Of a DNA stretch of 64,000 nucleotides, positions 2,480 through 57,312 are shown piece after piece. Within the stretch, counting starts at the first letter, position 1, and each line of letters opens with the position of its first letter. Below the pieces are notes generated by a model. That model was not told where the DNA came from and did not search any database. It saw nothing but the letters and a program-made list of their open reading frames with translations. Location: the NCBI GenBank assembly GCA_965224245.1, contig OZ245046.1, positions 2,084,148-2,148,147 of the forward strand. Direction: 5' to 3'. The DNA is from Candidatus Eiseniibacteriota bacterium (GTDB taxonomy: Bacteria > Eisenbacteria > RBG-16-71-46 > CAZAMP01). The position numbers and the translations under genes were made by a program.

Positions 2480-3652
2480 CTAGTTGCCGGCGACCGAGGT
2501 CAACCGTTCCGCGGACTTCCTGATGGCGTCTTTCCTGTCGGTGGCTTCCCAGGTGAAGCTGTCCAGCTCGCGTCCGAAATGACCGTAGGCCGCGGTCCGA
2601 CGATAGATCGGCCGCCACAGGTCGAGCATCTGGATGATGCCCGCCGGTGTCAGCTGGAAGTGCTCGCGTACGATCTGCTCGAGCGACGCGTCGGGCACGA
2701 CACCGGTCCCCAGCGTGTCGACCATCACCGAGACCGGTTCGGCCACCCCGATCGCATACGCGAGCTGCACCTCGCACCGGCGGCACAGTCCGGCCGCGAC
2801 GAGGTTCTTGGCCACGTAGCGGGCGGCGTAGCAAGCGGATCGGTCGACCTTGGTCGGGTCCTTCCCGCTGAACGCCCCACCGCCGTGCCGGCCCCACCCG
2901 CCGTACGTGTCGACGATGATCTTGCGTCCCGTGAGCCCCGTGTCGGCCTTGGGCCCGCCCTCGACGAACCGGCCGGTCGGATTGATGTGATAGACGACGT
3001 CGTCGTGAACGAGCGCGTCGGGCAGACACGGCTTGATCACCTCTTCACGGATCGCCTCGGTGAGCGCGTTCGTCGAGATGCTCGGCGCGTGCTGCGTGGA
3101 CACCACCACGGTGTGCACCCGGCGTGGTCGTCCGTCGTCACCATACTCGATCGTGACCTGGCTCTTGCCGTCGGGACGCAGCCAGGAGAGGGTGCCGTCC
3201 TTTCGCAGATCCGCGAGGCGATGGGTGATGCGATGCGCGATCAGAATCGGCGTCGGCATCAGCTCGTCGGTCTCGTCGGATGCGTAGCCGAACATCAAGC
3301 CCTGGTCGCCGGCACCGATCCCGTCGCTGCCGTCCACGCCCATCGCGATGTCCGGGGACTGCGCGTCGATGCTCGTGAGCACGGCGCAGGTGTCGGCGTC
3401 GAATCCGTAGTCGGCGTCGGTGTAGCCGATCTCGCGGATCACCCGCCGCACGACCTCGGGGATCTCGACGTAGCCGTTGGTGCGGATCTCGGCCGAGATG
3501 AACGCCAGACCCGTGGTCACCAGCGTCTCGCAGGCCACGCGCGCGTTCTCGTCCTGCCCGATGATCTCGTCGAGAATGCCGTCGGAAACCTGGTCGGACA
3601 CCTTGTCGGGATGTCCTTCGGTCACCGATTCCGACGTAAACAGAAAGCTCAT
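2480..3652 (-). CDS. metK: S-adenosylmethionine synthetase
   Basis: 390-aa ORF with MetK signatures '[14 protein letters not shown]', '[12 protein letters not shown]', '[16 protein letters not shown]'. Confidence 0.95.
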
Positions 3653-3808
3653 TTAGCACTCCCTCGGCGGGGGTGAGCGACTCGGGGCCAGCGAACGCAC
3701 GACACACGGCGCCACGACGTGACCGACGGCGACGAGACGCGTTCTCCAGGGAAGGATCCGACCCGGATGTGGCACTAGCAGCCAGAGGCGGGCCGTGACC
3801 GACCCGGT

Positions 3809-3837
3809 AATGTACGGATGCGTCGAACGCCTGTCAA
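3809..3837 (-). promoter_or_regulatory. putative sigma70-type promoter upstream of metK
   Basis: On the minus strand: perfect -35 TTGACA (revcomp of 3832-3837), 17-nt spacer, -10 TACATT (revcomp of 3809-3814); about 150 nt upstream of the metK ATG. Confidence 0.4.
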
Positions 3838-3863
3838 CGGGCGCCTCCGGCTGCGGGCGCGCG

Positions 3864-5663
3864 TCAGAGCCCTCGGACCGCGGCCAGCTCGGGGAAACGG
3901 TCGGCCAGGAAACCGCCGAGGAGCGACGCGACGTCCGCGGCGGTCGACATCCGCACCGCGCGAGTGGCCACGTCCCGGCTCTCGGCGTAGGAGATGGTGC
4001 GGATCACCTGCTTCACCTCGGGCAGTAGCGAGGGCGTCATCGACAGATCGTCGATCCCCAGCCCCACCAGGAGCACGGTGGCCAGCGTGTCCGCCGCGAG
4101 CTCGCCGCACAGGCTGACCCGGCAGCCCTCCCGGTGGGCGGCCTCGACGGTGGCGTGAATGGCCCGGAGCACGCTCGGGTGCAGCGGATTGAACAGATAG
4201 CCGAGCTTGGCGTTGGTGCGATCGACGGCCAGCGCATACTGAGTCAGGTCGTTGGATCCGATGGAGAAAAAGTCCACCGAGCGAGCCAGCACGTCCGCCA
4301 TCAGCACCGCGGCCGGCGTCTCGATCATGATCCCGATCGTGACGTGCCGATCGAACTCCACCCCCGCGTTCGTGAGCTCCTGCATCACCGCGTCGAGATG
4401 TTCGCGCACGCGATCGAGCTCCTCGGGCGTCGTGATCATGGGGAACAGGAGGCGGACCGGGCCGAACGCGCTCGCCCGGAGCGCGGCGCGCAGCTGCGCG
4501 CGGAACACGTCCTCGTGTCCCAGGAGATAGCGAATCCCCCGGAGTCCGAGAAACGGGTTCTTCTCTCGATCGGCGCCGATGTACGACGCGAACTTGTCGC
4601 CGCCGACGTCGAGCGTCCGGATCACCACCGGCTTGGGCGACAGCAGCTCGAGCGCCCGCCGGTAGATCGCGAACTGCTCGTCCTCGGACGCGAGGTGCGC
4701 GCGCTGCATCAACAGGAACTCGGTGCGGAACAGTCCGACGCCGCTGGCCCCGTAGCGATGCACGGCGTCGATCTCGAGCGGCATCTCGATGTTCGCCAGG
4801 AGGTGGATCTCGCGCCCGTCGGTGGTGACCGACGGCATCTCGCGTGACAGCTCCAGACGATCCATCATCTCGGCGTAGTGACGGCGCACGCGTTCGTACC
4901 GGCGCTCGTCCTCGTCGGTGGGATCGAGGATCAGCCGACCCCGCCAGCCGTCGAGGATCGCGCGACCACCGGCCGCGGTCTCGTCCAGAAGGTTCTCGAT
5001 GCCGAACACGGCGGGTAGCCCGCGCGCGCGGGCCATGATCGCGGCGTGCGCGGTGGCGCCGCCCCGCTCGGTCGCGAGCCCCCGCGCGCTCGTGCCCGCG
5101 ACCGCCACCGTGTCGCCGGGAGTCAGCTCGCGTGCGACGATGATGGCATCCTCGGCCGACACGGTGAGCCCGTCACGATCGTCCTCGGCCAGCCGCCGCA
5201 GGACGCGCCGCTTGACGTCGCGGATGTCGGCCGCGCGCTCGCGAAACAGCCCGCTCTGCATGCGATCGAACGTCTCGAGCACGCGGAGCACGTTCTGACG
5301 GAAGGCATACCCGGCGTTCCGGCGATGCTCTCGGATGTCGGTCTCGGTCGCATCGATGGCCAGGGGGTCGCTCAGGATCATCAGCTGTGCATCGAAGATC
5401 TCGGCGGACTCCGCCCCCAGCTCCTCCACCATCGCGTCGCGCAGGCCCGAGATCTCGTCGATGACGGCGCCCACCGCGGCCCGGAAGCGATCGATCTCCG
5501 CGTCGACGCCGTCGGCCTCGATCAGGAACTCGCCCACCACGACCTCGTTGGGCTCGGCGGTCGCGATGTCGCCGATGGCGATCCCGGGGGAAACCGCGAT
5601 GCCGTGAAGCACGCGCCGGCCGCTGCCGGCGCCCCCGGCTCCGGGAGTGACGCCGGCGGTCAC
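3864..5663 (-). CDS. ptsI: phosphoenolpyruvate-protein phosphotransferase (PTS enzyme I)
   Basis: 599-aa ORF with EI motifs 'GGATAHAAIMARARGLPAV', 'GLFRTEFLL', 'FFSIGSNDLTQY', 'SLCGELA'; 4-nt overlap with the upstream HPr gene. Confidence 0.9.
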   Translation of the reverse strand: MTAGVTPGAGGAGSGRRVLHGIAVSPGIAIGDIATAEPNEVVVGEFLIEADGVDAEIDRFRAAVGAVIDEISGLRDAMVEELGAESAEIFDAQLMILSDPLAIDATETDIREHRRNAGYAFRQNVLRVLETFDRMQSGLFRERAADIRDVKRRVLRRLAEDDRDGLTVSAEDAIIVARELTPGDTVAVAGTSARGLATERGGATAHAAIMARARGLPAVFGIENLLDETAAGGRAILDGWRGRLILDPTDEDERRYERVRRHYAEMMDRLELSREMPSVTTDGREIHLLANIEMPLEIDAVHRYGASGVGLFRTEFLLMQRAHLASEDEQFAIYRRALELLSPKPVVIRTLDVGGDKFASYIGADREKNPFLGLRGIRYLLGHEDVFRAQLRAALRASAFGPVRLLFPMITTPEELDRVREHLDAVMQELTNAGVEFDRHVTIGIMIETPAAVLMADVLARSVDFFSIGSNDLTQYALAVDRTNAKLGYLFNPLHPSVLRAIHATVEAAHREGCRVSLCGELAADTLATVLLVGLGIDDLSMTPSLLPEVKQVIRTISYAESRDVATRAVRMSTAADVASLLGGFLADRFPELAAVRGL

Positions 5664-5974
5664 GACGCCCGCCCTTCGGCGGCTCGCGACTTCTCGACGT
5701 CGAGGACCTCGTCGTCGAACTCCGAGGCGAACAGACGCTCGATCGCACCGACGGCCAGCTCCTCGTCCTCGCCGTCCGCGGAGATCGTCAGACGCGTGCC
5801 CGTGATCGCGGCCAGCATCAGGATGCCCATGATGCTCTTGCAGTCGACGCTCTGGTTGGCGCCGTCGGTCAGTGCGATGCGGCTCCGGAAGCGCGCGGCC
5901 AGGCTGGCCAGCATGCTCGCCGGGCGCGTGTGGAGCCCGGGGTCGTTCAGGACGACGACGTCTCGCTCAACCAT
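5660..5974 (-). CDS. ptsH: phosphocarrier protein HPr
   Basis: Internal ATG at 5972-5974 of the listed ORF gives a 104-aa protein 'MVERDVVVLNDPGLHTRPAS...DCKSIMGILMLAAITG' with the His-15 and Ser-46 sites; the upstream part of the listed ORF is Arg-rich read-through. Confidence 0.85.
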   Translation of the reverse strand: MVERDVVVLNDPGLHTRPASMLASLAARFRSRIALTDGANQSVDCKSIMGILMLAAITGTRLTISADGEDEELAVGAIERLFASEFDDEVLDVEKSRAAEGRAS

Positions 5975-5976
5975 CG

Positions 5977-8112
5977 TCACACCCCGGCATCGTCGCCCTC
6001 GGCCGCGGTGACCGGCTCGGGGACACGTGCGTCGGTGGACAGGATCTCGAGCGACGCGCGCAACGTGACGCGGCCGCGATCGGGCACCAGCGGCCAGACC
6101 AGAAACACCCGCGTGGACTGGAACACGCGGGTCGGAGCATGTCCGTTCAGCGACACCGTCTCGATCGGGAAGCGCAGCACGCGCACCCGCGGCTCCAGCG
6201 AGACGTTGACCTCGAAGCCTCTGCGCTCGTCGACGATCCCCCACCGGTCGACGTCGGGGATCTCGTCCTCGGTCCCGATGTCGTGCGACTCGCCTTCTGC
6301 GAATCGCATGTAGCGCCCGGCGCGTCCCGGGGCGCCCAGGCCGAACGTCCACTCCGTGGCGTACTGCATCCACCCGTCCGGCAGACCGTCGGGGAACGCG
6401 AGATGCCACACGACGTCGAAGCGTGCCCGCTCGGGATCGAGAACGACCTCGCGCTCGATCTCGACCACCGAGCTCTCGACCCGGCAGTTCGCGAAGAGGC
6501 GCAGCCGACCGGGCCCCTCGCGCTCCCACTCGTAGCGGGTGCGGGCGGGCGGCGCGCTGAGGGTGCGGAGGTCCTTGATCGTGGCCAGGGTCACGTCGTC
6601 GTCGAACACGTGATCGCGGAGGCTGTACAGCGGGAAGGGATCGTAGTTCAGGTACGAGGCCAGGTCGCTCTTCGACTGGCGGCGGCGCCCGCCCTTCGAG
6701 CCCGATGCGTCATCGCGCCGCTCCCGGATCGCCGAGTGGTACGACTCCTCGCGACGTGCGACCGTGTCGCACAGGTTCACCGCCCTGGGCTTCAGGTCCA
6801 GCGCGATCAGCGTGCCGCCGTCGTGGGGCGCCAGCGTCAGCGCCAGCTCGCGGTTCTCGACCACGACCTCGTCGTCTCCGTCCAGGTCGATGTCGCGATG
6901 ACTGAAGCGCTGGAACGGCTCGTCGCCGTGCTCCATCCGATCCATCAGCTCCCAGGCGCGGATCTGGTTGGTGAACACGGCGCGACGCAGCTGCGGCGCG
7001 TACACGCCCCCGTGTACGCCGTGCCAGTACGCGCCGTGACTCAGCGAGCGCCAGACCAGTCGCCGTGCCTCGGCGACCCGTTCGGGATCGGCCCCGCGAT
7101 CCTCCAGCGCCTGCACCCGACGCAGGAGATCCAGGCCGCGCTTGTGCATCCAGTTGGCCTCGGGGTAGCGCACGAGAAAGTTGCGCCAGTAGCCCATACC
7201 GAGGAATCGATCGAGTCCGTTGCCTTCCTGCTCCAGACGCGTGCGCAGCGAGTGATGGCGGCGCTGTGCCTCGGGGGGGATGGACCACTCCATCATCTCG
7301 CCGTACGTTCCGGTGGGCAGGTAGAGCTGCCCGGCGGCCTCGACGCCCTCGACCACCTCTTCCAGCGTGCACGTCTGGAGTCGATGGTGCTCGCGCTCGA
7401 GAAGCGCGAAGAAACGGGAGAGCCAGCGTCCCTCCTGGACGCGCTCGAACGAGCCCGGCCACGCGCCGAACTTGGCGCCGTCGTCGGCGAAGACGGCCAC
7501 CCTTCCGCCGCCGGTCTGGCGCTTCAGGAGCTGCGCGACGACCTCCTCGGGCTTCGCCGCGGGGATGAGATCGCGGAGGCTCCGCGGGACCGGAAAGACG
7601 CGGATGGGCATTCCCTCGTCCTCGGTCACGAACGAGTCGTACAGGCGCTTGTCGAGCACACCGATCCGCAGAAACGGCGTGTCGTCCAGCGGCATGTACT
7701 CGATGCCCGCCTGGCCGATGACCTTGGGCAGGGACGGCTCCCAGACGCGCTCGGCGAGCCACAGCCCCCTGGGCACGACGCCGAAGGTGCGCTCGATCAG
7801 CTCCTGGTGGGCGCGGATCTGCGCGACGCGCTCGCGCTCGGGGATGATCGCGAGAATGGGTTCGAAGATCGGCGACGAGAGCAGCTCGACCTGTCCCCGG
7901 TCGACCAGCTGCGAGAGGAGCTCCACGTACGCGGGCCGGCTGGCGATGAGCCACTCGAGCAGCGAGCCCGAGTTGTGGAGAACCACGCGAATCGACGGAT
8001 GCTCGGAGATGGTCACGAGGACCGGCCAGTACGCGCGCTCGTACGCCTCCTCCACGGCGCGGCGGGACTGCCCTTCGGGCTGGTGGTTGTGCAAGCAGAA
8101 CACGAACCTCAT
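5977..8112 (-). CDS. glycoside hydrolase family 57 enzyme (4-alpha-glucanotransferase / alpha-amylase type)
   Basis: 711-aa ORF; N-terminus 'FVFCLHNHQPEG...EEAYERAYWPVL...HNSGSLLEWL...RGQVELLSSPIFEPILAIIP...WLAERVWEP' matches the GH57 catalytic domain along its length (e.g. Pyrococcus 4-alpha-glucanotransferase 'FIFGIHNHQPLG...RGQVEIVVAGFYEPVLASIP...WLTERVWQP'). Confidence 0.8.
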   Translation of the reverse strand: MRFVFCLHNHQPEGQSRRAVEEAYERAYWPVLVTISEHPSIRVVLHNSGSLLEWLIASRPAYVELLSQLVDRGQVELLSSPIFEPILAIIPERERVAQIRAHQELIERTFGVVPRGLWLAERVWEPSLPKVIGQAGIEYMPLDDTPFLRIGVLDKRLYDSFVTEDEGMPIRVFPVPRSLRDLIPAAKPEEVVAQLLKRQTGGGRVAVFADDGAKFGAWPGSFERVQEGRWLSRFFALLEREHHRLQTCTLEEVVEGVEAAGQLYLPTGTYGEMMEWSIPPEAQRRHHSLRTRLEQEGNGLDRFLGMGYWRNFLVRYPEANWMHKRGLDLLRRVQALEDRGADPERVAEARRLVWRSLSHGAYWHGVHGGVYAPQLRRAVFTNQIRAWELMDRMEHGDEPFQRFSHRDIDLDGDDEVVVENRELALTLAPHDGGTLIALDLKPRAVNLCDTVARREESYHSAIRERRDDASGSKGGRRRQSKSDLASYLNYDPFPLYSLRDHVFDDDVTLATIKDLRTLSAPPARTRYEWEREGPGRLRLFANCRVESSVVEIEREVVLDPERARFDVVWHLAFPDGLPDGWMQYATEWTFGLGAPGRAGRYMRFAEGESHDIGTEDEIPDVDRWGIVDERRGFEVNVSLEPRVRVLRFPIETVSLNGHAPTRVFQSTRVFLVWPLVPDRGRVTLRASLEILSTDARVPEPVTAAEGDDAGV

Positions 8113-8609
8113 GTGCCCTCGATCCTCTCGTTCACCGCGTGCACGCTCGGGAGCGGCACGGCATCGTCGCCCGGGAGCGCCCGAAACGTGCTTCGTATGC
8201 CGGCCGTGGCCAGGCGCTCGAACGCGGCCGCCTCGGCGCGCGTCAGCTGTAGATCGTCGCGGAAGCGCACCCGATCCGGGGCCGCGTGCAGGCCGCCGAC
8301 GTTGATCTCATGCACCCGCACCCCTCGCTCGACCAGCGCTTCGACCGCCTCGGGTCCGCGCACCAGCACCAGCGTGACCGGGGCGTCGAACCGCCCCGCC
8401 GCGTAGGCCGTGGTGAACGCGTCGATCGTGATCACCTCGACCGGAACGTCGTCGGGCGCCGATGCCTCGTACACCTCGCGCTCCCACGCGTCCGCGGCCG
8501 CGCGGTCGTCGGCCACGACGATCCGATCGAGCGCCATCGTCGGCACCCACCCGTGGGAGACCTGACCGTGAAGCAGGCGATCGTCGACCCGCACCAGTGC
8601 GATCGGCAC
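8109..8609 (-). CDS. PTS mannose-family EIIB domain protein
   Basis: 166-aa ORF starting 'MPIALVRVDDRLLHGQV', the EIIB-Man signature; ATGA overlap with the GH57 start. Confidence 0.8.
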   Translation of the reverse strand: MPIALVRVDDRLLHGQVSHGWVPTMALDRIVVADDRAAADAWEREVYEASAPDDVPVEVITIDAFTTAYAAGRFDAPVTLVLVRGPEAVEALVERGVRVHEINVGGLHAAPDRVRFRDDLQLTRAEAAAFERLATAGIRSTFRALPGDDAVPLPSVHAVNERIEGT

Positions 8610-8610
8610 G

Positions 8611-9006
8611 TCAGCCGCTCTCCGTGCGGGCGTCGTGAATCCCGCGCCGTCCCTTCATGATGACGCGCTCCACGAGCGCCCCGGCCTCCAGCCGGGCGCG
8701 ATAGTGACAGAACTCGAGCAGCATGGGAAGGTTGACCCCGGCAACACTCTGACATCGTGTGTGTTGCGAGGCCAGGAGCCGGCACGCGGTCTCGCAGCTG
8801 CCTCCCGCGAGGTCGGTGAAGAGGACCAGGTCGTCGCCCGGCCCGAGCGCCTCGATGGCGCCCTCTACCCGCTCGCGGATCGCGTCGGCCGAGAGCCCGG
8901 CGTTGGAGATGACGTTCACGCCGTCCTGGGGCCCGAGAAAGCCCTCCACCGCCTCCACGAGCGCCTCACCCACGCGGCCGTGTGTGACGAGGAGCGCGCG
9001 GATCAC
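8611..9006 (-). CDS. PTS mannose-family EIIA domain protein
   Basis: 131-aa ORF 'MIRALLVTHGRVGEAL...LVLFTDLAGGS', EIIA-Man fold signature. Confidence 0.8.
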   Translation of the reverse strand: MIRALLVTHGRVGEALVEAVEGFLGPQDGVNVISNAGLSADAIRERVEGAIEALGPGDDLVLFTDLAGGSCETACRLLASQHTRCQSVAGVNLPMLLEFCHYRARLEAGALVERVIMKGRRGIHDARTESG

Positions 9007-9046: not shown

Positions 9047-10021
9047 TCACTCGCGATCCCCGCGCGCGATGGCCTGGAACTGCAGGCGCTTCTTCTGCTC
9101 CATCGTGCGCAGAAGGCGCTCGGAGAAGGCCTGCGCCGGATTGTACCCGTAGGCCTTCACGAGATAGTTCAGCGCGATGACCTCGGCGATGACCGTGATG
9201 TTCTTGCCCGGGAAAATGGGAATCTCGACCATCGGGATCTCGACCCCGAGGATCCGGGCGGTCTTGTTCTCGAGCCCCAGACGTTCGTAGTCCTCGCTGG
9301 AGTCCCAGTCCCGGAGATTGACCTCGACCTCGACGCGCTTCTGTCCGCGGATAGCCCGGATTCCGAACACGGCCTGCACGTCGATGATCCCCAGTCCGCG
9401 GATCTCCACGTGGTGGGTGACGACCGCGTTCGAGGCCCCGATCAGGATGTTGTCCTGGACCCGCTTGATCGACACGATGTCGTCGGCGACCAGCCGGTGG
9501 CCGCGCTCGACGAGATCCAGTGCACACTCGCTCTTGCCGATGGCCGAGCGCCCGGTGAACAGGAGCCCCACGCCGTACACGTCGACCAGGCTCGCGTGCA
9601 CGCTCAGCTCGGGCGCGAACGCCTCCTCGAGGATCGCCGCCAGTCGATGCTGGAAGGTCGTCGTGCCCAGCTCGGTCTGGAACAGCGGCGTTCCCGAGCG
9701 GTTCGCCTCCTGGATGAGGAGATCCTGGGCGGACGTGGTGTGCGCCACCACCACGCACGGCATCTTGAACGAGAAGAGCCGCTCGATGGCGATGCGCTGG
9801 TTGTCGGCATCGAGCGACGACAGGTACGCCTGCTCGACCTCGCCCAGAACCTGCACGCGTTCGCTGAGGAACGACTCCCGATACCCCGCCAGAAGCAGCC
9901 CGGGTCGATTGAGGTCGGACTGGGTGATCGGGATGGGCCCCTCGACCTGCTCGGTGAGGGCGTTGAGCGAGAGCTCGGAGCGATGATCCTCATAAAACTG
10001 GGAGACGCTGATGGTCTTCAT
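9047..10021 (-). CDS. hprK: HPr kinase/phosphorylase
   Basis: 324-aa ORF with P-loop 'GRSAIGKSECALDLVERGHRLVADD' and 'HVEIRGLGII' typical of HprK. Confidence 0.9.
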   Translation of the reverse strand: MKTISVSQFYEDHRSELSLNALTEQVEGPIPITQSDLNRPGLLLAGYRESFLSERVQVLGEVEQAYLSSLDADNQRIAIERLFSFKMPCVVVAHTTSAQDLLIQEANRSGTPLFQTELGTTTFQHRLAAILEEAFAPELSVHASLVDVYGVGLLFTGRSAIGKSECALDLVERGHRLVADDIVSIKRVQDNILIGASNAVVTHHVEIRGLGIIDVQAVFGIRAIRGQKRVEVEVNLRDWDSSEDYERLGLENKTARILGVEIPMVEIPIFPGKNITVIAEVIALNYLVKAYGYNPAQAFSERLLRTMEQKKRLQFQAIARGDRE

Positions 10022-10075: not shown

Positions 10076-10447
10076 CTAGTCGGTTTCGGCGGCCTCGCCC
10101 GCCTCGGACTCGGCTTGCTTGGCCGCGATCACCGAGCTGGTCGACTCGGCCTTCTCGCGCCGATCGACGAGCTTGTTCTTGTGCTTCTTGACCTGGCGCT
10201 CGAGTCGGTCGATCGCGCCGTCGATCGACGTCACGACGTCGGTGGTCTCCTCGCGGCTCACGAGGTCGGGGCCTCCGGCCACCTTCAGCGAGATCTCGGT
10301 CTGGTAGCGGAACTTCTCCTTGGTGATCGTCACGGTGGCATCGAATATCTTGCCGAAGTAGCGATCGAGGCGCTGCAGCTTCTCCTCGGCGTGCTCGCGT
10401 GTCTTCGGACTCAGCTCGAAATGGCGTGCCGTGGTCGTGATGTCCAT
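10076..10447 (-). CDS. hpf: ribosome hibernation promoting factor (sigma-54 modulation protein)
   Basis: Start moved to the internal ATG at 10445-10447 (SD-like GGAGAGGA upstream); 'MDITTTARHFELSPKTREHAEEKLQRLDRYF' HPF/RaiA-type; position directly downstream of rpoN. Confidence 0.85.
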   Translation of the reverse strand: MDITTTARHFELSPKTREHAEEKLQRLDRYFGKIFDATVTITKEKFRYQTEISLKVAGGPDLVSREETTDVVTSIDGAIDRLERQVKKHKNKLVDRREKAESTSSVIAAKQAESEAGEAAETD

Positions 10448-10546
10448 CGGAGCGTCCTCTCCTTCTGCGACTCGATCCGCCGGGTTCTCGTCGCGTCGCG
10501 ACCGGTTCGGCGAAACACTCACACGATCGGCGACCCGATCACGCGC

Positions 10547-11956
10547 TCAGAACCGCTTCCGGTAGCGCGCGGTCGGGATGCCGAGTTGCTCACGATACTT
10601 CGCGACCGTGCGCCGCGCGATGCGCACGCCGCGGTCGCCCAGGATGTCGGCGATCTTCTGATCGGACAGCGGGCGTTGCTTGTCCTCCTCGTCGATCAGC
10701 TGCGAGATGATGTCTCGGGCGGAGCGGGCGCTCATGTCGCCGCCGTCGTGGCGGGCGATGGCGGCCGAGAAGAAGTACTTCAGCTCGAAGACCCCGCGCG
10801 GCGTCTGCACGTACTTCCCGCGGGTGACCCGGCTCACCGTGGACTCGTGCATCCCGATGCGATCGGCGATCTGGCTCAGGGTGAGCGGCTTCAGATGGCT
10901 GACACCCTTCTCGAAGAACTCGCTCTGCACGTCCACGATGCAGGTCATGACCTTGATCATCGTCTTCCGGCGCTGCTCGATCGTCTGGATGAGCCACCTC
11001 GCGCTGTTGAGCTTGCCCTCGATGTACTCGCGTGCGCCGTCGGCGTCCTTGCCGCCGCGCAGGACGCTCTCGTACGCCGAGCTGATGCGGATGCGCGGCA
11101 CGTTGCGATCGTTCAAGTAGACCTCGTACTTGCCGCTGACGCGCTCGACGACCAGATCGGGGATCACGTACCGCGGGTCCTCGGATTCGATCTCGCCGCC
11201 GGGGTTCAGGCTCAGCATGGCGAGATGATCCTTGGCCAGCTGGACGTCCTCGTCGGAGACCGACAGGGCACGGGCGATCTCGTGGTGTCGGTTCTTGAGC
11301 ATGTCGTCGTAGTGATCGTGAATGATCTGGTAGGCGAGCGTGTCGTCCTCGCCGCGAACCCGGAGCTGGATCAGGAGCCCCTCGCGGTGATCGCGCGCCC
11401 CGACGCCCGCGGGCTCGAAGGTCTGAATGACGGCCAGCACGTTCTCGAGCTGCTCGACCGTCCATCCCGACGTCTCGGCGATCGTCTCCAGCGGCTCGAC
11501 CAGGAAGCCCCGCTCGTCCAGCGATCCGATCAGGTACTCGCCGATCTCGAGCGCCTCGGCATCGCCGACGCCGAGCCGCAGCTGACCCAGGAGGTGCTCG
11601 TGCAGCGATACCTCGGTCACGCGGACCTTCTCGAAGAACTCGGTGTCCTCGGACTCGCGACGCACCGCCGCCATGTCTCGGTCGTCCTGGTAGAACTCGG
11701 CCCAGTCGGGCTCGGTGCGGTCCTCGGGACGCTCCTTGTCGTCGGGCGTCAGCTGCTCTTCCTGGACCTTCTCCGTCTCCTCGTTCTCGAGATTGAGATC
11801 GACCTCCTCGAGAATCGGGTTCGTCAGGATCTCTTCCTTGAGCATCTGCTCGAGCTCGAGCGCGGGCATCTGGAGGATCTTCAGCGCCTGCTGAAGCCGG
11901 GGGGTCATGATGAGCTGCTGGCTCTGTCGGAGCTGCAGCCCAGGCTTCATTTCCAT
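10547..11956 (-). CDS. rpoN: RNA polymerase sigma-54 factor
   Basis: Region I 'GLQLRQSQQLIMTPRLQQALKILQMP', C-terminal HTH and RpoN box 'ARRTVAKYREQLGIPTARYRKRF'; start taken at Met-28 of the listed ORF (GGAGGAA 12 nt upstream); Met-15/Met-30 are alternatives. Confidence 0.9.
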   Translation of the reverse strand: MEMKPGLQLRQSQQLIMTPRLQQALKILQMPALELEQMLKEEILTNPILEEVDLNLENEETEKVQEEQLTPDDKERPEDRTEPDWAEFYQDDRDMAAVRRESEDTEFFEKVRVTEVSLHEHLLGQLRLGVGDAEALEIGEYLIGSLDERGFLVEPLETIAETSGWTVEQLENVLAVIQTFEPAGVGARDHREGLLIQLRVRGEDDTLAYQIIHDHYDDMLKNRHHEIARALSVSDEDVQLAKDHLAMLSLNPGGEIESEDPRYVIPDLVVERVSGKYEVYLNDRNVPRIRISSAYESVLRGGKDADGAREYIEGKLNSARWLIQTIEQRRKTMIKVMTCIVDVQSEFFEKGVSHLKPLTLSQIADRIGMHESTVSRVTRGKYVQTPRGVFELKYFFSAAIARHDGGDMSARSARDIISQLIDEEDKQRPLSDQKIADILGDRGVRIARRTVAKYREQLGIPTARYRKRF

Positions 11957-12055
11957 CTGTGGCTTCCGTTCCTCCGCGACGGCGACGGCCGCCATCGTCG
12001 GACGACCCCGCGTCCGGGCGCGGCGCCGGGTCGACACGAGAGCGTCACTCCGGCG

Positions 12056-12790
12056 CTAGAGCCGAAACGCCGCTCCCAGATAGAGCTTTCTGGCCGTGGG
12101 GTCGTTCGCGAGCTCCTCGGGCGACCCCGAGATGAGTATGCGGCCTTCGAACATCAGGTACGCTCGATCGGTCGTGTTGAGCGTCTCACGGACGTTGTGA
12201 TCGGTTATGAGCACTCCGAGACCGCGTCTCTTCAGGTCGCCGACGATCTGTTGAATATCGGCGACCGCGATCGGATCGATACCGACAAACGGTTCGTCTA
12301 GCAAGATGAAAGATGGCTTCGTCACCAGCACACGCGCGATCTCGACGCGGCGGCGTTCGCCGCCGGACAGCTGATACCCGCGACGATCCACGATGTGACC
12401 GATGTCGAGCTCCTCGAGCGCTTGCTGGAGTCGCGAGGCGCGCGCCTCGCGGTCCAGATCGAGCGTCTCCAGGATCGCCATCACGTTGTCACGCACCGTG
12501 AGTTTACGAAAAATCGAGGGCTCTTGGGCGAGATATCCAATCCCGAGCCTCGCGCGGCGATGCATGGCGAGATCGGTGATGTCGCGCCGGTCCAGGTAGA
12601 TGCGCCCGCCGTCGGGGCGCTCGTTCCCGACGATCATTCGAAACGTCGTCGTCTTGCCCGCGCCGTTGGGGCCCAAGAGCCCCACCACCTCGCCGGGCTC
12701 GACGGCGAGATCGACCTCGCGCACCGCCTCCAGCTTCCCGTACCGCTTGACGAGCTGTTCGACCTCGAGCGCTCGTGTCGTCGTGTCCAC
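12056..12790 (-). CDS. lptB: LPS export ABC transporter ATP-binding protein
   Basis: Walker A 'GPNGAGKTTTF', signature 'LSGGERRRVEIARVL', Walker B 'ILLDEPF'; GTG start at 12788-12790 chosen because the upstream listed residues are Arg-rich and the preceding gene ends at 12798. Confidence 0.85.
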   Translation of the reverse strand: MDTTTRALEVEQLVKRYGKLEAVREVDLAVEPGEVVGLLGPNGAGKTTTFRMIVGNERPDGGRIYLDRRDITDLAMHRRARLGIGYLAQEPSIFRKLTVRDNVMAILETLDLDREARASRLQQALEELDIGHIVDRRGYQLSGGERRRVEIARVLVTKPSFILLDEPFVGIDPIAVADIQQIVGDLKRRGLGVLITDHNVRETLNTTDRAYLMFEGRILISGSPEELANDPTARKLYLGAAFRL

Positions 12791-12797
12791 GCGCCAC

Positions 12798-13481
12798 CTA
12801 CTCCGGGACGCCGACACCGCCGGTGCCGTCGGGGTCCGTGTCTCGGTCGGGAGCACCGTCGAGCGCATCGTCGTCCTCGATCACCGTGCCCTCGAAGTCC
12901 TCGAGGATCTCGAACGAATCCAGCTCGGGATCGGAGACGAGCCCGACCCCGGTGTACAGGTTTCGGCCTTGCACGATCCGGACGGCCGCATCGCTTCGGA
13001 TGAGGCGGTCGCGCTCGTTCCACTCCAGAACCTCGGTCTCCAGGCGCTCCCCGTCGGGCGTGATCACGACGACGTTCGAGCGCGCGACCAGACGCCGCGT
13101 GGGGCCGGTCACCTCACCCTCGTCCGCGGTCAGCGTGGAGGACAGCTCGCCGTCGGAGTCGAAGAATCGAACGGTCACGCCGTGCAGCTCGGTGTGTGGC
13201 GGATCCTCGTGCTGGCGCGCCTCTTCGGCCTCGAGCTCCCACTTCGTGCGCCCGAGCTCGGTCTCTCGCACGCGGAGGCCCCAGCTCTGCTGGGACGTGC
13301 TCAGCGTGTCGGTCACCGGCGAGGTCGCCTCGGGGTCGCGCGCGCATCCGAGCAACGCCAGCACCAGCGCCGAGCTCGTCACCACGACCCGGACCGTGAT
13401 GACCCGGGCCGCGACCACGCGGGCCCCGACTGCGCGGGCCGCGATCGCGCGTGCGGGTGTCCGCGCGCGATGCGGCCTCAT
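12798..13481 (-). CDS. LptC/LptA-family (OstA-like) LPS transport protein, start uncertain
   Basis: Hydrophobic N-terminal anchor with 'LLGC', then beta-rich 'VTVRFFDSDGELSSTLTADEG...SNVVVITPDGERLETEVLEW' typical of OstA-like jellyroll; sits immediately upstream of lptB. Confidence 0.5.
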   Translation of the reverse strand: MRPHRARTPARAIAARAVGARVVAARVITVRVVVTSSALVLALLGCARDPEATSPVTDTLSTSQQSWGLRVRETELGRTKWELEAEEARQHEDPPHTELHGVTVRFFDSDGELSSTLTADEGEVTGPTRRLVARSNVVVITPDGERLETEVLEWNERDRLIRSDAAVRIVQGRNLYTGVGLVSDPELDSFEILEDFEGTVIEDDDALDGAPDRDTDPDGTGGVGVPE

Positions 13482-29988: not shown

Positions 29989-30813
29989 CTACATGGCCCT
30001 CGCGCGATAGGCGGCACGGAACCGATCGGCCAGGTCGGCATCGCGCCCCTCGGCCCACTCCCCGACGCGTACCCACGCTCTCGCGTGAATGAACCGGTCC
30101 CGGTCCAGCGCCAGACCGACGTGGCTGGCCCGCTCGCCCTCACCCCAGAAGATCACGTCGCCGGGGCGAAGGTCGGCCCGCTGGACGCGATCGCCGCGGG
30201 TGCGAAACCACTCCTCCTGCTGCCACGAATCGCGTGGCGCCGGCAGCCCGCCGGCGACCAGCGCCATCTGGACGAGGCCCGAACAGTCGACGCCGCTCGG
30301 CGTGCGCCCGCCCCATCGGTACGGGGTGCCCAGGAGCGCCGAGGCCAGCGCCAGCGACGTGGTTCCGACGTGAACGTCGTCGGCGTAGAACGGTCGTTCG
30401 GCGTCGGCGGGCACCTCGCCCGGCGTGCCGTCCGGGAGCACCACCGCATGTCCGCGGTGCGAGCGCCCTTCGCGGCGCAGGACGCCCCCGTACACCCAGG
30501 TCCGGATGGGGACCCCTTCGCGCGTGCGAACGATCGTCTCGCGCGCGCCGACGCGCACCGGAGACGGTCCGGGCCAGGTCGTGTCGACCCGGACGGTCTG
30601 CTCGGCGGGGACCCAGCCGGAGTATCGGTCGGGCATCGTCACGCGGAGCCACGTGTCGCCGTCCACGACGCGGACCTCCCCGACGTCGAGGGGCTCGCCG
30701 CCGAGCGCTTCCGAGACGCGCTCGGTCGCGCGGCTCGGCTCTCTTCGGAGCGCGACCAGCCCGACGTTGGGCGCCACGCGGGAGGTGTCGTTCCAATCGG
30801 TTGGTGATGTCAT
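29989..30813 (-). CDS. NlpC/P60 (C40) family peptidoglycan endopeptidase
   Basis: Catalytic 'YRWGGRTPSGVDCSGLVQ' and 'GDVIFWGEG...SHVGLAL'; start set at the ATG that overlaps the upstream gene stop (ATGA). Confidence 0.8.
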   Translation of the reverse strand: MTSPTDWNDTSRVAPNVGLVALRREPSRATERVSEALGGEPLDVGEVRVVDGDTWLRVTMPDRYSGWVPAEQTVRVDTTWPGPSPVRVGARETIVRTREGVPIRTWVYGGVLRREGRSHRGHAVVLPDGTPGEVPADAERPFYADDVHVGTTSLALASALLGTPYRWGGRTPSGVDCSGLVQMALVAGGLPAPRDSWQQEEWFRTRGDRVQRADLRPGDVIFWGEGERASHVGLALDRDRFIHARAWVRVGEWAEGRDADLADRFRAAYRARAM

Positions 30814-32183
30814 CGGAACACCTGTACCAAGTGATAGTCGCCGAGGCCGATCTCGTCGACGAACCGGAATTCGCGCCCGAGCGCCGCGTAATACCACACC
30901 TCGACCCACGGGCGCCCGCCGCTGGACGGAGTCCGGTCGATTCGATCAGGGTGTCCGTTCTGAAGCAACACGAAACCGCGATCGGTCTTCCAGCCCGGCT
31001 GCGTTCCCGTGCCGAAGTGCTGGTTCGCGAAGCGCAGCCGTCGAAAGAAGTCGTCGCGGTACTCGTTGGTCGGCGTGCTCGGATCCGGATCCCGCTCGGC
31101 CCAGAACGCGGCCCAGGCCTCGGCGCGATCCTCGGGGGCGACGTTGCGCAGTTCGTCCAGCTCGTCGTCGCTCGCGATCGCGTCGATGATCTCCAGCGTC
31201 TCGCTGAAGCCGGTACGCAGCGAGAGCAGCGACTCGTCGGCGCTGAACCAGATCTCGCGGTAGATCTCGTGGCTCTCTCGCGGGATCTTGACGCTCACCT
31301 CGACCCGGTAGTCGCCGAAGCCGAGGCTTCCCGTGTCGAGGGGCAGCATCACCAGCGTGCGGAACCCCTCGCAGGGCAGCTCCTCGGTCCGCGCCTGGAG
31401 CGTGCGCTCGTAGTCGTCCACGAGCCGATAGCTCACCCGGTAGCGCTCGCGGCAGCCGTGGGGCGCGTAGAGCTCCCCGACCAGGGTCAGCGACGTGGCG
31501 TCCCGGCCCACCACGCGGCTCACGATCGGGAACCCGAGATCGCCGGCCGGTCGGGCCACGATGCGACTCGCCGGCTCGGCCGATAGATACATCGTGCTCA
31601 GGGTGAACGGGGACTCCGAGATCGAGTCGATCCGGAGATCGCGCTTCACGCGCGAACGCCGTTCGGTTCCGGGTTGTCCGAGCTCCACCTGGAGCTGATA
31701 CCGGCCCGGGTCGAGCCGGATGGGAATGACCTGCAGCACGTGCCGATCCTCGGACACCGGATCGTCCACCGTGACCGACTGGGTCAGGACGTCGCCGTCC
31801 ACCTGCGTGCCGCCGCGCCGAACCTGCCACGCCACCACGTACTCGGTGGACGTCTCCCCGGGCTCGAAGAACAGGTGCGTGACCGCCAGGTCGAGTGTGA
31901 TCCAGACCGTGCCCTGGTCGCTGCCCTCGGTGTGGAAGACGAGAACGTCGGCCGTGAAGGGGTGGTTGCCGGCCGCCTCGAGAGGCGGCGGCTCCGCCCC
32001 CGCGGGACGGGGGCCGCCGATTGCGATCAGGGCCGCCAGAACAGCGACGCCGAGCGCGTGGTGGCCGCTCCACCGTCGCGCACGCGGCCCGGCGCGGCGC
32101 GAGGGGTGGCGACGCCGTCCGCGCCGAATGCCGGGGATCCGGTGCGCCGGCGTCGAAACGTCCGCTGTCGACATCGAGGTCAC
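30810..32183 (-). CDS. GWxTD domain-containing protein
   Basis: 457-aa ORF with signal peptide and the eponymous motif 'QPGWKTDRGFVLLQNGHPD'. Confidence 0.75.
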   Translation of the reverse strand: MTSMSTADVSTPAHRIPGIRRGRRRHPSRRAGPRARRWSGHHALGVAVLAALIAIGGPRPAGAEPPPLEAAGNHPFTADVLVFHTEGSDQGTVWITLDLAVTHLFFEPGETSTEYVVAWQVRRGGTQVDGDVLTQSVTVDDPVSEDRHVLQVIPIRLDPGRYQLQVELGQPGTERRSRVKRDLRIDSISESPFTLSTMYLSAEPASRIVARPAGDLGFPIVSRVVGRDATSLTLVGELYAPHGCRERYRVSYRLVDDYERTLQARTEELPCEGFRTLVMLPLDTGSLGFGDYRVEVSVKIPRESHEIYREIWFSADESLLSLRTGFSETLEIIDAIASDDELDELRNVAPEDRAEAWAAFWAERDPDPSTPTNEYRDDFFRRLRFANQHFGTGTQPGWKTDRGFVLLQNGHPDRIDRTPSSGGRPWVEVWYYAALGREFRFVDEIGLGDYHLVQVFR

Positions 32184-53234: not shown

Positions 53235-53365
53235 GCCGGATCCGGCCTCGCTCCCGGCGGTCGCCGCGCCCGGGCCCACCCGGAAAAGGGTGGCGAACGC
53301 CCGAAGCGGAACACTAGACTCGCCCGCACGTGAACACCCGTCGACGACCCCAACGCTCCCGTGGG

Positions 53366-56269: not shown

Positions 56270-57284
56270 CGCGCACGCAGCCGCGGCGATCGGCGCTGCC
56301 CGCGCGGCCGCCGCCGCTCTCGCGGCGATGGCGGTCCTCTCGTGCCTGGCGGGCCCCGTCTCGGCCATCGGCGACCAGCGCTCGGGCACCAGCTCGGGCA
56401 CGTTCCTCAAGATCGCCGCCGATCCCCGGGGCGCCGCGATGGGCAACGCCGTGGTGGCCGACGCGCCCGGGATCACCGCGCTCGTCTGGAACCCGGCATC
56501 GCTGACCACGCTGGGCACGATGCAGCTCATGGCGTCGTACACGCGCTGGCCGGGCGAGATCGACTACTCGTACGCGGCGCTGGCCAGCTACGTCGGGCGC
56601 TTCTCCGGCACCGTGGGGCTCCAGATCGGCCACCTCGGCGTCGTCATGGAGGAGACGACCGAGGCCAATCCGACCGGGACCGGCGAGAACTTCGGCGTCC
56701 GGGACTGGTTTCTGGCGGGAACCTACGCGCGCCGGTTCACCGACCGGCTCTCGTTCGGCCTCACCGCCCGGTTGGTGCGCGAGGAGCTCGGCACCGAGAT
56801 CGGCGGTCCGTCCTCCACGAACGTGCTGTTCGACTTCGGGACGCTCTACTACATGGACTTCCTCGATCTGAAGCTGGCGTTCGCGCTCCAGCACTTCGGT
56901 CCCGAGTTTCAGCCCAGCGGTGAGTACGTCTCGGCCGCGACCGGCGCGGAGACGAGCTACGAGCCCTTCGCCCCTCCCACGACGTTCCGCCTCGGCGTTT
57001 CGGGTCCCATCCATCGCACCGAGCACACGCTGATCCGGGGCAACGTCGAGATGAACCACTTCTCGGACGCCGACGAGACGCTCCGCGTGGGCACCGAGTT
57101 CGGCTTCGACGACATGTTCTTCGTGCGCGCCGGATACGACATCGCCGCGGACGCGATGAAGTTCTCGGCTGGAGCGGGCTTCCACACGCGTTTCGGATTC
57201 AGCACCGGAGACGCGGACTACGCGTTCACCGATGCCGGCCCACTGGGAGTGGTACACCGCGTTGCGATTCGCATCGATCTGTAG
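56259..57284 (+). CDS. PorV/PorQ-like (FadL-fold) outer-membrane beta-barrel protein
   Basis: Signal peptide; N-terminal 'GTFLKIAADPRGAAMGNAVVADAPGITALVWNPASL' matches the FadL/PorV-family motif; amphipathic beta-strand pattern; start overlaps the last codons of the receptor gene. Confidence 0.5.
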   Translation: MSGSAHAAAAIGAARAAAAALAAMAVLSCLAGPVSAIGDQRSGTSSGTFLKIAADPRGAAMGNAVVADAPGITALVWNPASLTTLGTMQLMASYTRWPGEIDYSYAALASYVGRFSGTVGLQIGHLGVVMEETTEANPTGTGENFGVRDWFLAGTYARRFTDRLSFGLTARLVREELGTEIGGPSSTNVLFDFGTLYYMDFLDLKLAFALQHFGPEFQPSGEYVSAATGAETSYEPFAPPTTFRLGVSGPIHRTEHTLIRGNVEMNHFSDADETLRVGTEFGFDDMFFVRAGYDIAADAMKFSAGAGFHTRFGFSTGDADYAFTDAGPLGVVHRVAIRIDL

Positions 57285-57312
57285 ACCGGCGCACCCCGGC
57301 GCCCCTGGGCGC

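Follow-up and report, generated by a model that had tools for sequence, protein, structure and literature searches.

Why does a gene for an alpha-glucan enzyme lie inside an operon for a phosphotransferase system (PTS) phosphorelay? We addressed this question in a 64-kb window, the whole stretch of DNA analyzed here, from a Candidatus Eiseniibacteriota bacterium (contig OZ245046.1; G+C = 69%). On the minus strand we observed the order rpoN-hpf-hprK-EIIA(Man)-EIIB(Man)-GH57-ptsH-ptsI, in which a glycoside hydrolase family 57 (GH57) gene stands between a mannose-type Enzyme II component and the phosphocarrier HPr. Our data tip slightly toward the explanation that this gene encodes a cytoplasmic alpha-1,4-glucan protein inherited as an internal cistron of the PTS operon, and that storage-glucan handling is co-expressed, and probably co-controlled, with the PTS/HprK carbon-status signal.

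Gene identities from rpoN to ptsI were assigned with Pfam and NCBIfam profiles, all above the curated cutoffs. The genes, all on the minus strand, are rpoN (sigma-54; 10547-12037; Pfam Sigma54_AID, Sigma54_CBD, and Sigma54_DBD), hpf (ribosome hibernation/sigma-54 modulation protein; 10076-10522; PF02482, E = 1e-23), hprK (HPr(Ser) kinase/phosphorylase; 9047-10021; Hpr_kinase_N and Hpr_kinase_C; TIGR00679, 343.6 bits against a cutoff of 240), EIIA(Man) (8611-9006; PF03610, E = 3e-17), a mannose/sorbose-family EIIB (8109-8609; PF03830, E = 1e-38), the GH57 gene (5977-8112; 711 aa), ptsH (HPr; 5660-5974; PF00381, E = 9e-26, 90 bits), and ptsI (Enzyme I, GTG start; 3864-5663; TIGR01417, 552 bits). 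The initial annotation, drawn for the span 5660-8609, which takes in HPr, GH57, and EIIB, had proposed the order from hprK to ptsI, and both the sequence and the profiles bear it out.

The cistrons around GH57 are tightly packed. The EIIB stop and the GH57 start overlap as ATGA (8109-8112, minus strand), as had been read before, and the HPr stop overlaps the ptsI GTG start as GTGA (5660-5663). The GH57 stop codon (TGA, 5977-5979) is followed by two bases (CG) and then by the HPr ATG at 5974; the earlier statement that HPr starts 3 nt after the GH57 stop holds if the first base of the ATG is counted as the third base past the stop, and not as the number of intervening bases, which is two. The gap from the EIIA stop to the EIIB GTG start is 1 nt, and that from hprK to EIIA is 40 nt. 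In a consensus scan, the stretch from hprK to ptsI showed neither a sigma-70-like promoter nor a terminator that convinced. Its sole promoter-like site on the minus strand lies in the ptsI/metK spacer (3837-3809); this is a consensus match only, at 10 of 12 positions, and likely marks the downstream end of the operon. Because GH57 lies inside the operon with so little space on either side, its co-transcription and translational coupling with the hprK-EII-ptsHI cistrons are very likely. The stoichiometric co-expression with the phosphorelay that the initial annotation had implied would go beyond this.

Profile, sequence-to-structure, and fold evidence agreed on GH57 membership, in line with the initial annotation. 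The protein matched the GH57 catalytic domain (PF03065, 127.9 bits against a cutoff of 21.2, E = 6e-37), the middle helical domain PF09094 (81 bits), and the C-terminal beta-sandwich PF09095 (126 bits), the latter two being characteristic of the alpha-amylase/4-alpha-glucanotransferase subgroup. Its sole solved-structure relative by sequence was the Thermococcus litoralis 4-alpha-glucanotransferase 1k1w (phmmer, E = 3e-98, residues 2-510). An AlphaFold2 model (pLDDT 79.9, pTM 0.82) had 1k1x as its top Foldseek match over the full length (TM 0.72/0.80), with other GH57 enzymes and GH38 mannosidases far behind. Two segments of the model had a pLDDT below 50: residues 364-370 (~7003-7020), a loop after conserved sequence region (CSR) 5 that reads WHGVHGG and carries His in place of a family-invariant Phe, and residues 451-486 (~6655-6762), a charged segment (RERRDDASGSKGGRRRQSKS) that links the middle domain to the C-terminal one. 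The alignment with the T. litoralis enzyme, which is intracellular, begins at the N-terminus of both proteins and leaves no room for a signal peptide. No Rosetta-stone fusion of GH57 with PTS domains was found among the top 120 homologs.

All five CSRs were recognizable in the window protein. By alignment to 1k1w, E121 (WLAERVWEP, CSR-3; codon 7750-7752, minus strand) corresponds to the nucleophile Glu123, and D211 (FADDGAKFG) corresponds to the proton donor (acid/base) Asp214, which is the third residue of CSR-4, as in PMC6037648. Both members of the catalytic Glu/Asp pair that the initial annotation had proposed to confirm are therefore kept. Gln11 and Glu76, the equivalents of T. litoralis Gln14 and Glu79, are present as well. 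The D211-G212-A213 codons (7474-7482, minus strand) place an alanine where T. litoralis has Glu216, and a glycine occupies position 354, and the remaining near-invariant CSR residues (Gln14, Glu79, Glu216, and Asp/Cys354) are not retained as a set. A sequencing slip at A213 was ruled out, since its codon, GCC, is not one base from GAG or GAA. The near-invariant residues replaced in the window protein include, in T. litoralis numbering, N18, H148, Y183, E216, N353, D354, and F361. Because Glu216 and several other near-invariant residues are lost, the activity or specificity of the window GH57 is probably altered or reduced.

A protein search with the window GH57 returned one exact copy, on a 6.45-Mb contig, and nine relatives at 51-60% identity, with the next matches at 39% or below; an exact look-up of the protein turned up no record. 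Among named relatives, Candidatus Eisenbacteria came closest for GH57 and for HprK alike. Genomic context was recovered for seven relatives from this clade (L001, L002, L083/L084, L090, L091, L145, and L146), drawn from independent JGI, ENA, NCBI, and Logan samples. All seven showed the order lptC-lptB-rpoN-hpf-hprK-EIIA-EIIB-GH57-ptsH-ptsI-...-metK, so that the synteny of interest to the initial annotation does extend to related genomes. The position of rpoN was conserved in all relatives, and the 4-nt EIIB/GH57 overlap was also present in L002, L083, L090, L091, and L146. Misassembly was ruled out by this identical order at 51-60% GH57 identity in independent samples, and an arrangement by chance or by assembly artifact is excluded.

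A search outward from HprK, which carries no bias toward GH57, placed the window clade among sister lineages with identical flanks (lptC-lptB-rpoN-hpf-hprK ... ptsH-ptsI ... metK) and a variable slot between hprK and ptsH. The slot holds EIIA-EIIB-GH57 in the window clade, EIIA-EIIB-EIIC-EIID without GH57 in L086 (HprK 61% identical), and GH57 only in L085 (8001-13494 of a 4.58-Mb circular metagenome-assembled genome (MAG) contig, HprK 59% identical). The named Candidatus Eisenbacteria L088 and L089 carry EIIA-EIIB-GH57-EIIC-EIID, preceded by rapZ in L088; a Firestonebacteria MAG (L070) carries cofD-like-EIIA-EIIB-GH57-EIIC-EIID; and an unclassified MAG (L073) has EIIB-GH57-...-EIID followed by HPr-PtsI. 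The window GH57 thus fills the slot of EIIC/EIID in L086, the closest relative without GH57. The initial annotation had described GH57 as wedged into the relay, and this image had to be abandoned: GH57 has long been part of the operon, and in Eisenbacteria and Firestonebacteria it follows EIIB and precedes EIIC-EIID. L085 lacks EIIA, EIIB, EIIC, and EIID and has a fully canonical GH57 active site. Because its order is hprK-GH57-ptsH-ptsI without any EII gene, GH57 needs no neighboring EIIB.

We then considered a wider sample, a genome-collection scan with the GH57 alignment that gave 80 GH57 loci at 31-37% identity from many phyla outside the close clade; these are the best matches listed, and all counts out of 80 below are to be read among them. 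GH57 lay in or beside the rpoN/hprK/PTS block in 14 of the 80 loci, all from other phyla. It was located between EIIA and ptsH in an NC10 MAG (L048), between hprK and ptsH in Hydrogenedentota (L071), past hprK or EIIB together with an MlaD-like gene in Zixibacteria and relatives (L007, L011, and L058), and just upstream of lpt-rpoN-hpf-ptsN-hprK-rapZ-EIIA-EIIB-ptsH-ptsI in five Deltaproteobacteria/Thermodesulfobacteriota MAGs (L013, L024, L033, L044, and L050). In a Rokubacteria MAG (L045, 7629-14340), GH57 was flanked by rpoN and metK, which are also the outer neighbors in the window, and tblastn did not detect hprK, EII, ptsH, or ptsI in that locus. The linkage of GH57 to the PTS is therefore ancient, recurrent, and patchy. 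The tie to a PTS operon proposed in the initial annotation holds; it is a tie to the whole rpoN/hprK/ptsHI block and not to EIIB specifically, as L085 illustrates.

The same distribution bears on the null explanation, in which GH57 has no functional link to the relay and is a neutral passenger fixed at its position. Gene order by itself is no proof of function, and the place of GH57 relative to the block differs among phyla, as a passenger would allow. Against this stand the recurrence of the linkage across many phyla in the 80 loci, the retention of the gene and its context in all 8 clade members at 51-60% identity, with the start/stop overlap in most of them, and the fact that GH57 stays in place in a locus that has no EII genes. 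We regard a neutral passenger as highly improbable.

In Zixibacteria, Ignavibacteria, and a 'Bacteroides sp. SM23_62' MAG (L007:5487-6383, L011:9099-9995, L058:9075-9989, and L031:286-1113), the gene that directly precedes GH57 encodes an MlaD-domain protein of ~300 aa. In three of these four loci the MlaD-domain gene lay between hprK or EIIB and GH57.

Genes within 5 kb of GH57 in the 80 loci also pointed to its likely role. We observed a second GH57 (9 of 80), a GalT-like transferase (9 of 80), a fusion of a nucleoside diphosphate (NDP)-sugar pyrophosphorylase with PGM (8 of 80), a GT5 glycogen synthase (7 of 80), and a ROK glucokinase (6 of 80). The glycogen-gene neighbors support a role for the GH57 subfamily in storage alpha-glucan metabolism, as judged from their proximity. 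A single-domain response regulator was present within the same distance in 12 loci (L003, L010, L016, L020, L024, L033, L038, L042, L049, L050, L062, and L077), in one case directly upstream of GH57 (L016:9491-9973, with GH57 at 10001). These neighbors form a second, independent tie of the GH57 subfamily to phospho-signaling proteins.

The ROK glucokinase loci (L026, L028, L057 (7404-8393), L063, L064, and L065), mostly from Chloroflexi/Dehalococcoidia, fit a need to phosphorylate glucose. They thereby lend support to a metabolic channeling explanation, in which GH57 disproportionates maltodextrin or glycogen and frees glucose, and the adjacent Man-type EII phosphorylates that glucose with phosphoenolpyruvate (PEP), as a PTS counterpart of MalQ plus glucokinase. 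By analogy, the ROK glucokinase would be the ATP-dependent counterpart of PTS phosphorylation of the glucose released by the glucanotransferase. Channeling also agrees with the place of GH57 in the Eisenbacteria and Firestonebacteria operons, behind EIIB and ahead of EIIC-EIID, with the ATGA that EIIB and GH57 share, and with the PGI/PMI-type isomerase and NDP-sugar pyrophosphorylase encoded past ptsI in relatives. These last genes, one or both of them (the pyrophosphorylase being PF00483), lie between ptsI and metK in L002, L083, L085, L086, and L088. In the window, the ptsI-metK spacer is 211 bp (3652-3864) and contains the promoter-like site, so that here, too, the block has lost genes of sugar metabolism.

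We assessed whether the window relay is complete. The phospho-accepting residues EIIA His9 (VTHG), EIIB His14 (RLLHGQV), and HPr His15 (GLHTRP), as well as the HprK target Ser46 of HPr (KSIMG), were all present in the window and conserved in the clade members compared. hprK, ptsH, and ptsI adjoin rpoN-hpf in the window and in the relatives. tblastn with Firestonebacteria EIIC and EIID queries gave no match to EIIC (PF03609) or EIID (PF03613) in the 64-kb window, and the genes called in the 6-10 kb around the operon of the seven clade relatives included neither EIIC nor EIID. By these comparisons, the PTS relay is intact, and the operon is in a derived state without EIIC and EIID. Between hpf and EIIA, the window block has neither ptsN nor rapZ; rapZ is present in the Eisenbacteria locus L088, and a ptsN-sized gene plus rapZ is present in the deltaproteobacterial loci L024/L033/L050. 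A radical-SAM gene lies between rpoN and hpf in L088 and L089.

The missing permease weighs on two of the explanations. Within the mannose family of the PTS, EIIB(Man) depends on EIIC and EIID to present the sugar, and the absence of both from the window operon argues against channeling, as does the presence of GH57 in L085 without any EII gene. The other explanation is that the Man-type PTS imports an alpha-glucoside in phosphorylated form and that GH57 processes it, as phospho-glycosidases do in other PTS operons. The location of GH57 between EIIB and EIIC-EIID in Eisenbacteria and Firestonebacteria, with related orders in L073 and in L104, would suit such a role. L104 (RapZ-EIIA-EIIB-GH57-EIID-ptsH-ptsI) came from an HPr-anchored metagenome sample, gathered with the clade HPr alignment and made up of HPr relatives at 33-51% identity, again as the best matches listed; five other loci of this sample carried EII(Man) genes and no GH57. 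The window operon has no permease, and elsewhere the GH57 subfamily is tied to glycogen synthesis genes and to an rpoN block without EII genes, both of which speak against a phosphorylated import product. GH57 enzymes are also not known to act on 6-phospho-sugars. Very little credence is left for this explanation.

A survey of 207 aligned GH57 subfamily members revealed that the active site has drifted in the window's clade. The nucleophile Glu was present in 207 of 207 sequences. Asp214 was Asp in 199 of 207, and all 8 exceptions, which include duplicate copies of two proteins, belonged to the window's clade, where the acid/base Asp is gone in 6 of 10 proteins (P0002, P0003, P0005, P0006, P0007, and P0010). 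Glu216 was Glu in 206 of 207, the one exception being the window protein, and every deviation at Gln14 and Asp/Cys354 fell within the clade. We observed that the clade kept only 59 of 89 family-conserved positions (66%; positions with 95% or more conservation outside the clade), compared to 91-97% in seven control clades of similar depth. It also had 28 positions that were conserved specifically within the clade, 8 of them arginine, including those at positions 156, 198, 244, 516, 524, 554, and 668. Operons of the Eisenbacteria/Firestonebacteria type had a fully canonical GH57 active site. The loss of the acid/base residue in the majority of clade members speaks against a flux-carrying enzyme in this lineage and, with the points above, makes channeling unlikely.

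The drift was not accompanied by signs of decay. The complete GH57 open reading frames (ORFs) of the clade were full length, and one of the ten sequences (P0007) was truncated at the N-terminus in the available data. The GH57/HprK divergence ratio was 1.8-2.2 within the clade compared to 1.4-2.1 in comparably close outgroup pairs, which suggests that overall constraint on the clade GH57 is little relaxed. Relative rates showed a modest, 1.17-fold acceleration of GH57 compared to 1.04-1.07 for HprK, RpoN, and PtsI. A decaying pseudogene was ruled out by the intact complete ORFs at 51-60% identity and by GH57/HprK ratios like those of outgroup pairs. These data suggest that the GH57 active site is eroding in this clade only, while the protein is maintained. 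The initial annotation's family assignment stands; its description of the product as a glucanotransferase/amylase needs qualification, as an eroding active site may mean that it is not an ordinary one in this lineage.

The clade HPr has changed too. It carries an extra C-terminal tail of ~15 residues (5660-5715 in the window, minus strand) that is conserved, with the consensus ..F-D/E-D/E-x-V-L-x-x-E-K-x-R-A.. in a comparison of the ptsH 3' ends of L001, L002, L083, L090, and L091. The tail was not present in L085, L086, L088, or L089. It occurs together with the state in which EIIC/EIID are absent and GH57 has drifted.

Drift of an intact protein raises the possibility that the clade GH57 is largely a non-catalytic glucan binder. 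As such, it could report glycogen or maltodextrin status to the relay, or it could be an HPr or EIIB target that replaces the permease as the partner of EIIB. The confinement of the Asp214, Gln14, and Asp354 losses to the clade and of the Glu216 loss to the window protein, the low retention of family-invariant positions relative to the control clades, the clade-specific conserved positions with their arginines, the full-length ORFs, the near-outgroup GH57/HprK ratios, and the HPr tail that goes along with the drifted state all speak for such a sensor. GH57 '4-alpha-glucanotransferase-like' proteins without catalytic residues are, moreover, a recognized class (PMC6037648). On the other side, the window copy keeps both its nucleophile and its acid/base residue, the clade member P0009/L083 is fully canonical, and the nucleophile Glu is invariant across the survey. 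A non-catalytic sensor is, from these alignments, possible rather than probable.

A more speculative form of this idea is that the GH57-derived protein has replaced EIIC/EIID as the EIIB(Man) partner, and that EIIB~P or HPr~P phosphorylates GH57 itself, or glucose or a malto-oligosaccharide in the remodeled cleft, with the clade arginines and the acidic/basic HPr tail forming a new interface or phosphate site. We consider this improbable. If true, it would constitute a soluble, PEP-driven PTS branch acting on cytoplasmic storage glucan, similar in logic to DhaKLM. In DhaKLM, the PTS-dependent dihydroxyacetone kinase, an EIIA(Man)-type domain hands PEP-derived phosphate to a soluble, non-transport enzyme system. 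Its catalytic partners are unrelated to those here, and the likeness bears only on this EIIB~P-to-GH57 (or ligand) proposal.

The explanation that we favor, co-expression and probable co-control of storage-glucan handling with the PTS, would proceed as follows. GH57 would be a cytoplasmic protein with glycogen or maltodextrin, both alpha-1,4-glucans, as its substrate, like the T. litoralis 4-alpha-glucanotransferase. The older form of the operon, as seen in Eisenbacteria and Firestonebacteria, would have had GH57 after EIIB and before EIIC-EIID, the permease genes. These genes were presumably dropped in the window lineage, which would leave a soluble relay from Enzyme I (EI) to HPr, EIIA, and EIIB, with HprK acting on Ser46 of HPr. 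GH57 would be translated from the same message as the relay, and storage-glucan handling would be expressed, and probably controlled, along with the PTS/HprK carbon-status signal. The operon would thereby have shifted from a transport-plus-metabolism unit to a soluble, regulatory unit, and the clade GH57 would have been kept intact while leaving canonical catalysis.

Several observations weigh against this explanation. The window covers 64 kb of a 6.45-Mb genome, and EIIC/EIID and other glycogen metabolism could lie elsewhere. The window copy may still be active, because it has both catalytic residues and the site of the clade member P0009/L083 is fully canonical. Gene neighborhood alone cannot tell co-regulation from direct protein-protein control. 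Seen from the PTS side, linkage to GH57 is a minority state, as GH57 was present in 1 of ~6 EII(Man)-containing loci among the matches listed in the HPr-anchored sample.

Compared to the T. litoralis 4-alpha-glucanotransferase (GH57; PDB 1K1W, 1K1X, and 1K1Y), the window GH57 shares the three-domain architecture, the fold, and the Glu123/Asp214 equivalents. It differs in being ~28-35% identical, in having Ala for Glu216 and replacements of the Asn18, His148, Tyr183, Asn353, Asp354, and Phe361 equivalents, and in its location in a PTS operon as opposed to the archaeal maltodextrin context. The '4-alpha-glucanotransferase-like proteins' of Martinovicova and Janecek (2018) are described (PMC6037648) as 63 bacterial-only sequences that are close to 4-alpha-glucanotransferases and lack one or both catalytic residues. 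By that definition, six of the ten clade members, those without Asp214, belong with the group, whereas the window protein, which has both the nucleophile and the proton donor, does not. The passages searched in that paper gave neither a genomic context nor a PTS link for these proteins.

Regulatory PTS modules that lack a permease and are linked to rpoN have been described, among them the HprK-EIIA(Man)-NPr module of alphaproteobacteria such as Brucella (PMC2937029). Unlike this module and PTS-Ntr, the window operon has EIIB(Man), an EI of the carbohydrate type, and an HprK of full length, and it carries an alpha-glucan enzyme without ptsN or rapZ. The Eisenbacteria/Firestonebacteria operon (rapZ or cofD-EIIA-EIIB-GH57-EIIC-EIID-ptsH-ptsI) resembles the window in its flanks, its EIIB-GH57 adjacency, and its GH57 subfamily, and differs in keeping EIIC/EIID and a fully canonical GH57 site. 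The closest mechanistic precedent for a link from the PTS to glycogen is E. coli HPr, which binds glycogen phosphorylase and phosphorylates it on histidine (PMC13324651; reviewed in PMC11046441), an instance of a PTS phosphocarrier controlling an alpha-glucan enzyme. The E. coli target is a GT35 phosphorylase whose gene is far from ptsH, whereas the candidate target here is a GH57 protein whose gene adjoins ptsH. The direct regulation of GH57 through phosphorylation of HPr, EIIA, or EIIB that the initial annotation gave as a possibility may apply in the window lineage. A full-text literature search found no description of a GH57 gene inside an hprK/ptsHI operon, nor of its cross-phylum distribution.

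The outer genes of the block were identified from their translations and from Pfam-annotated genes at the same positions in relatives. lptB (12056-12868) lies upstream of rpoN, and metK (2480-3652) and ftsK (17-2470) lie downstream of ptsI, all on the minus strand. Elsewhere in the window, the plus strand at 53330-59274 encodes a TonB-dependent receptor that is SusC-like and begins with a CarboxypepD_reg domain; next come a 341-aa ORF that has no annotation and an NHL-repeat protein. The minus strand at 30810-32183 encodes a GWxTD-domain protein. Genes of these kinds would fit an organism of the FCB group. Rfam, tRNA, and tandem-repeat scans of the window returned nothing relevant.

The component families of this operon are all known already, as are permease-less, rpoN-linked PTS modules and GH57 proteins with incomplete catalytic machinery. 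If the coupling is mere co-expression with carbon storage genes, the operon is a useful annotation point and not new biology. PTS control of glycogen metabolism has so far been documented mainly for HPr and glycogen phosphorylase of E. coli, whose genes are distant from each other. In the window, by contrast, the gene of an alpha-glucan enzyme is built into an hprK/ptsHI operon, and the arrangement recurs in phyla that have been little studied: Eisenbacteria, Firestonebacteria, Zixibacteria, Hydrogenedentota, NC10, and Thermodesulfobacteriota. GH57 is thus a concrete candidate for what a permease-less, 'regulatory' PTS controls in such bacteria. The window lineage would serve as a natural experiment, in which the transporter genes are gone, the relay is intact, the active site is remodeled, and the protein is maintained, a pattern that enzyme-to-regulator transitions often show.

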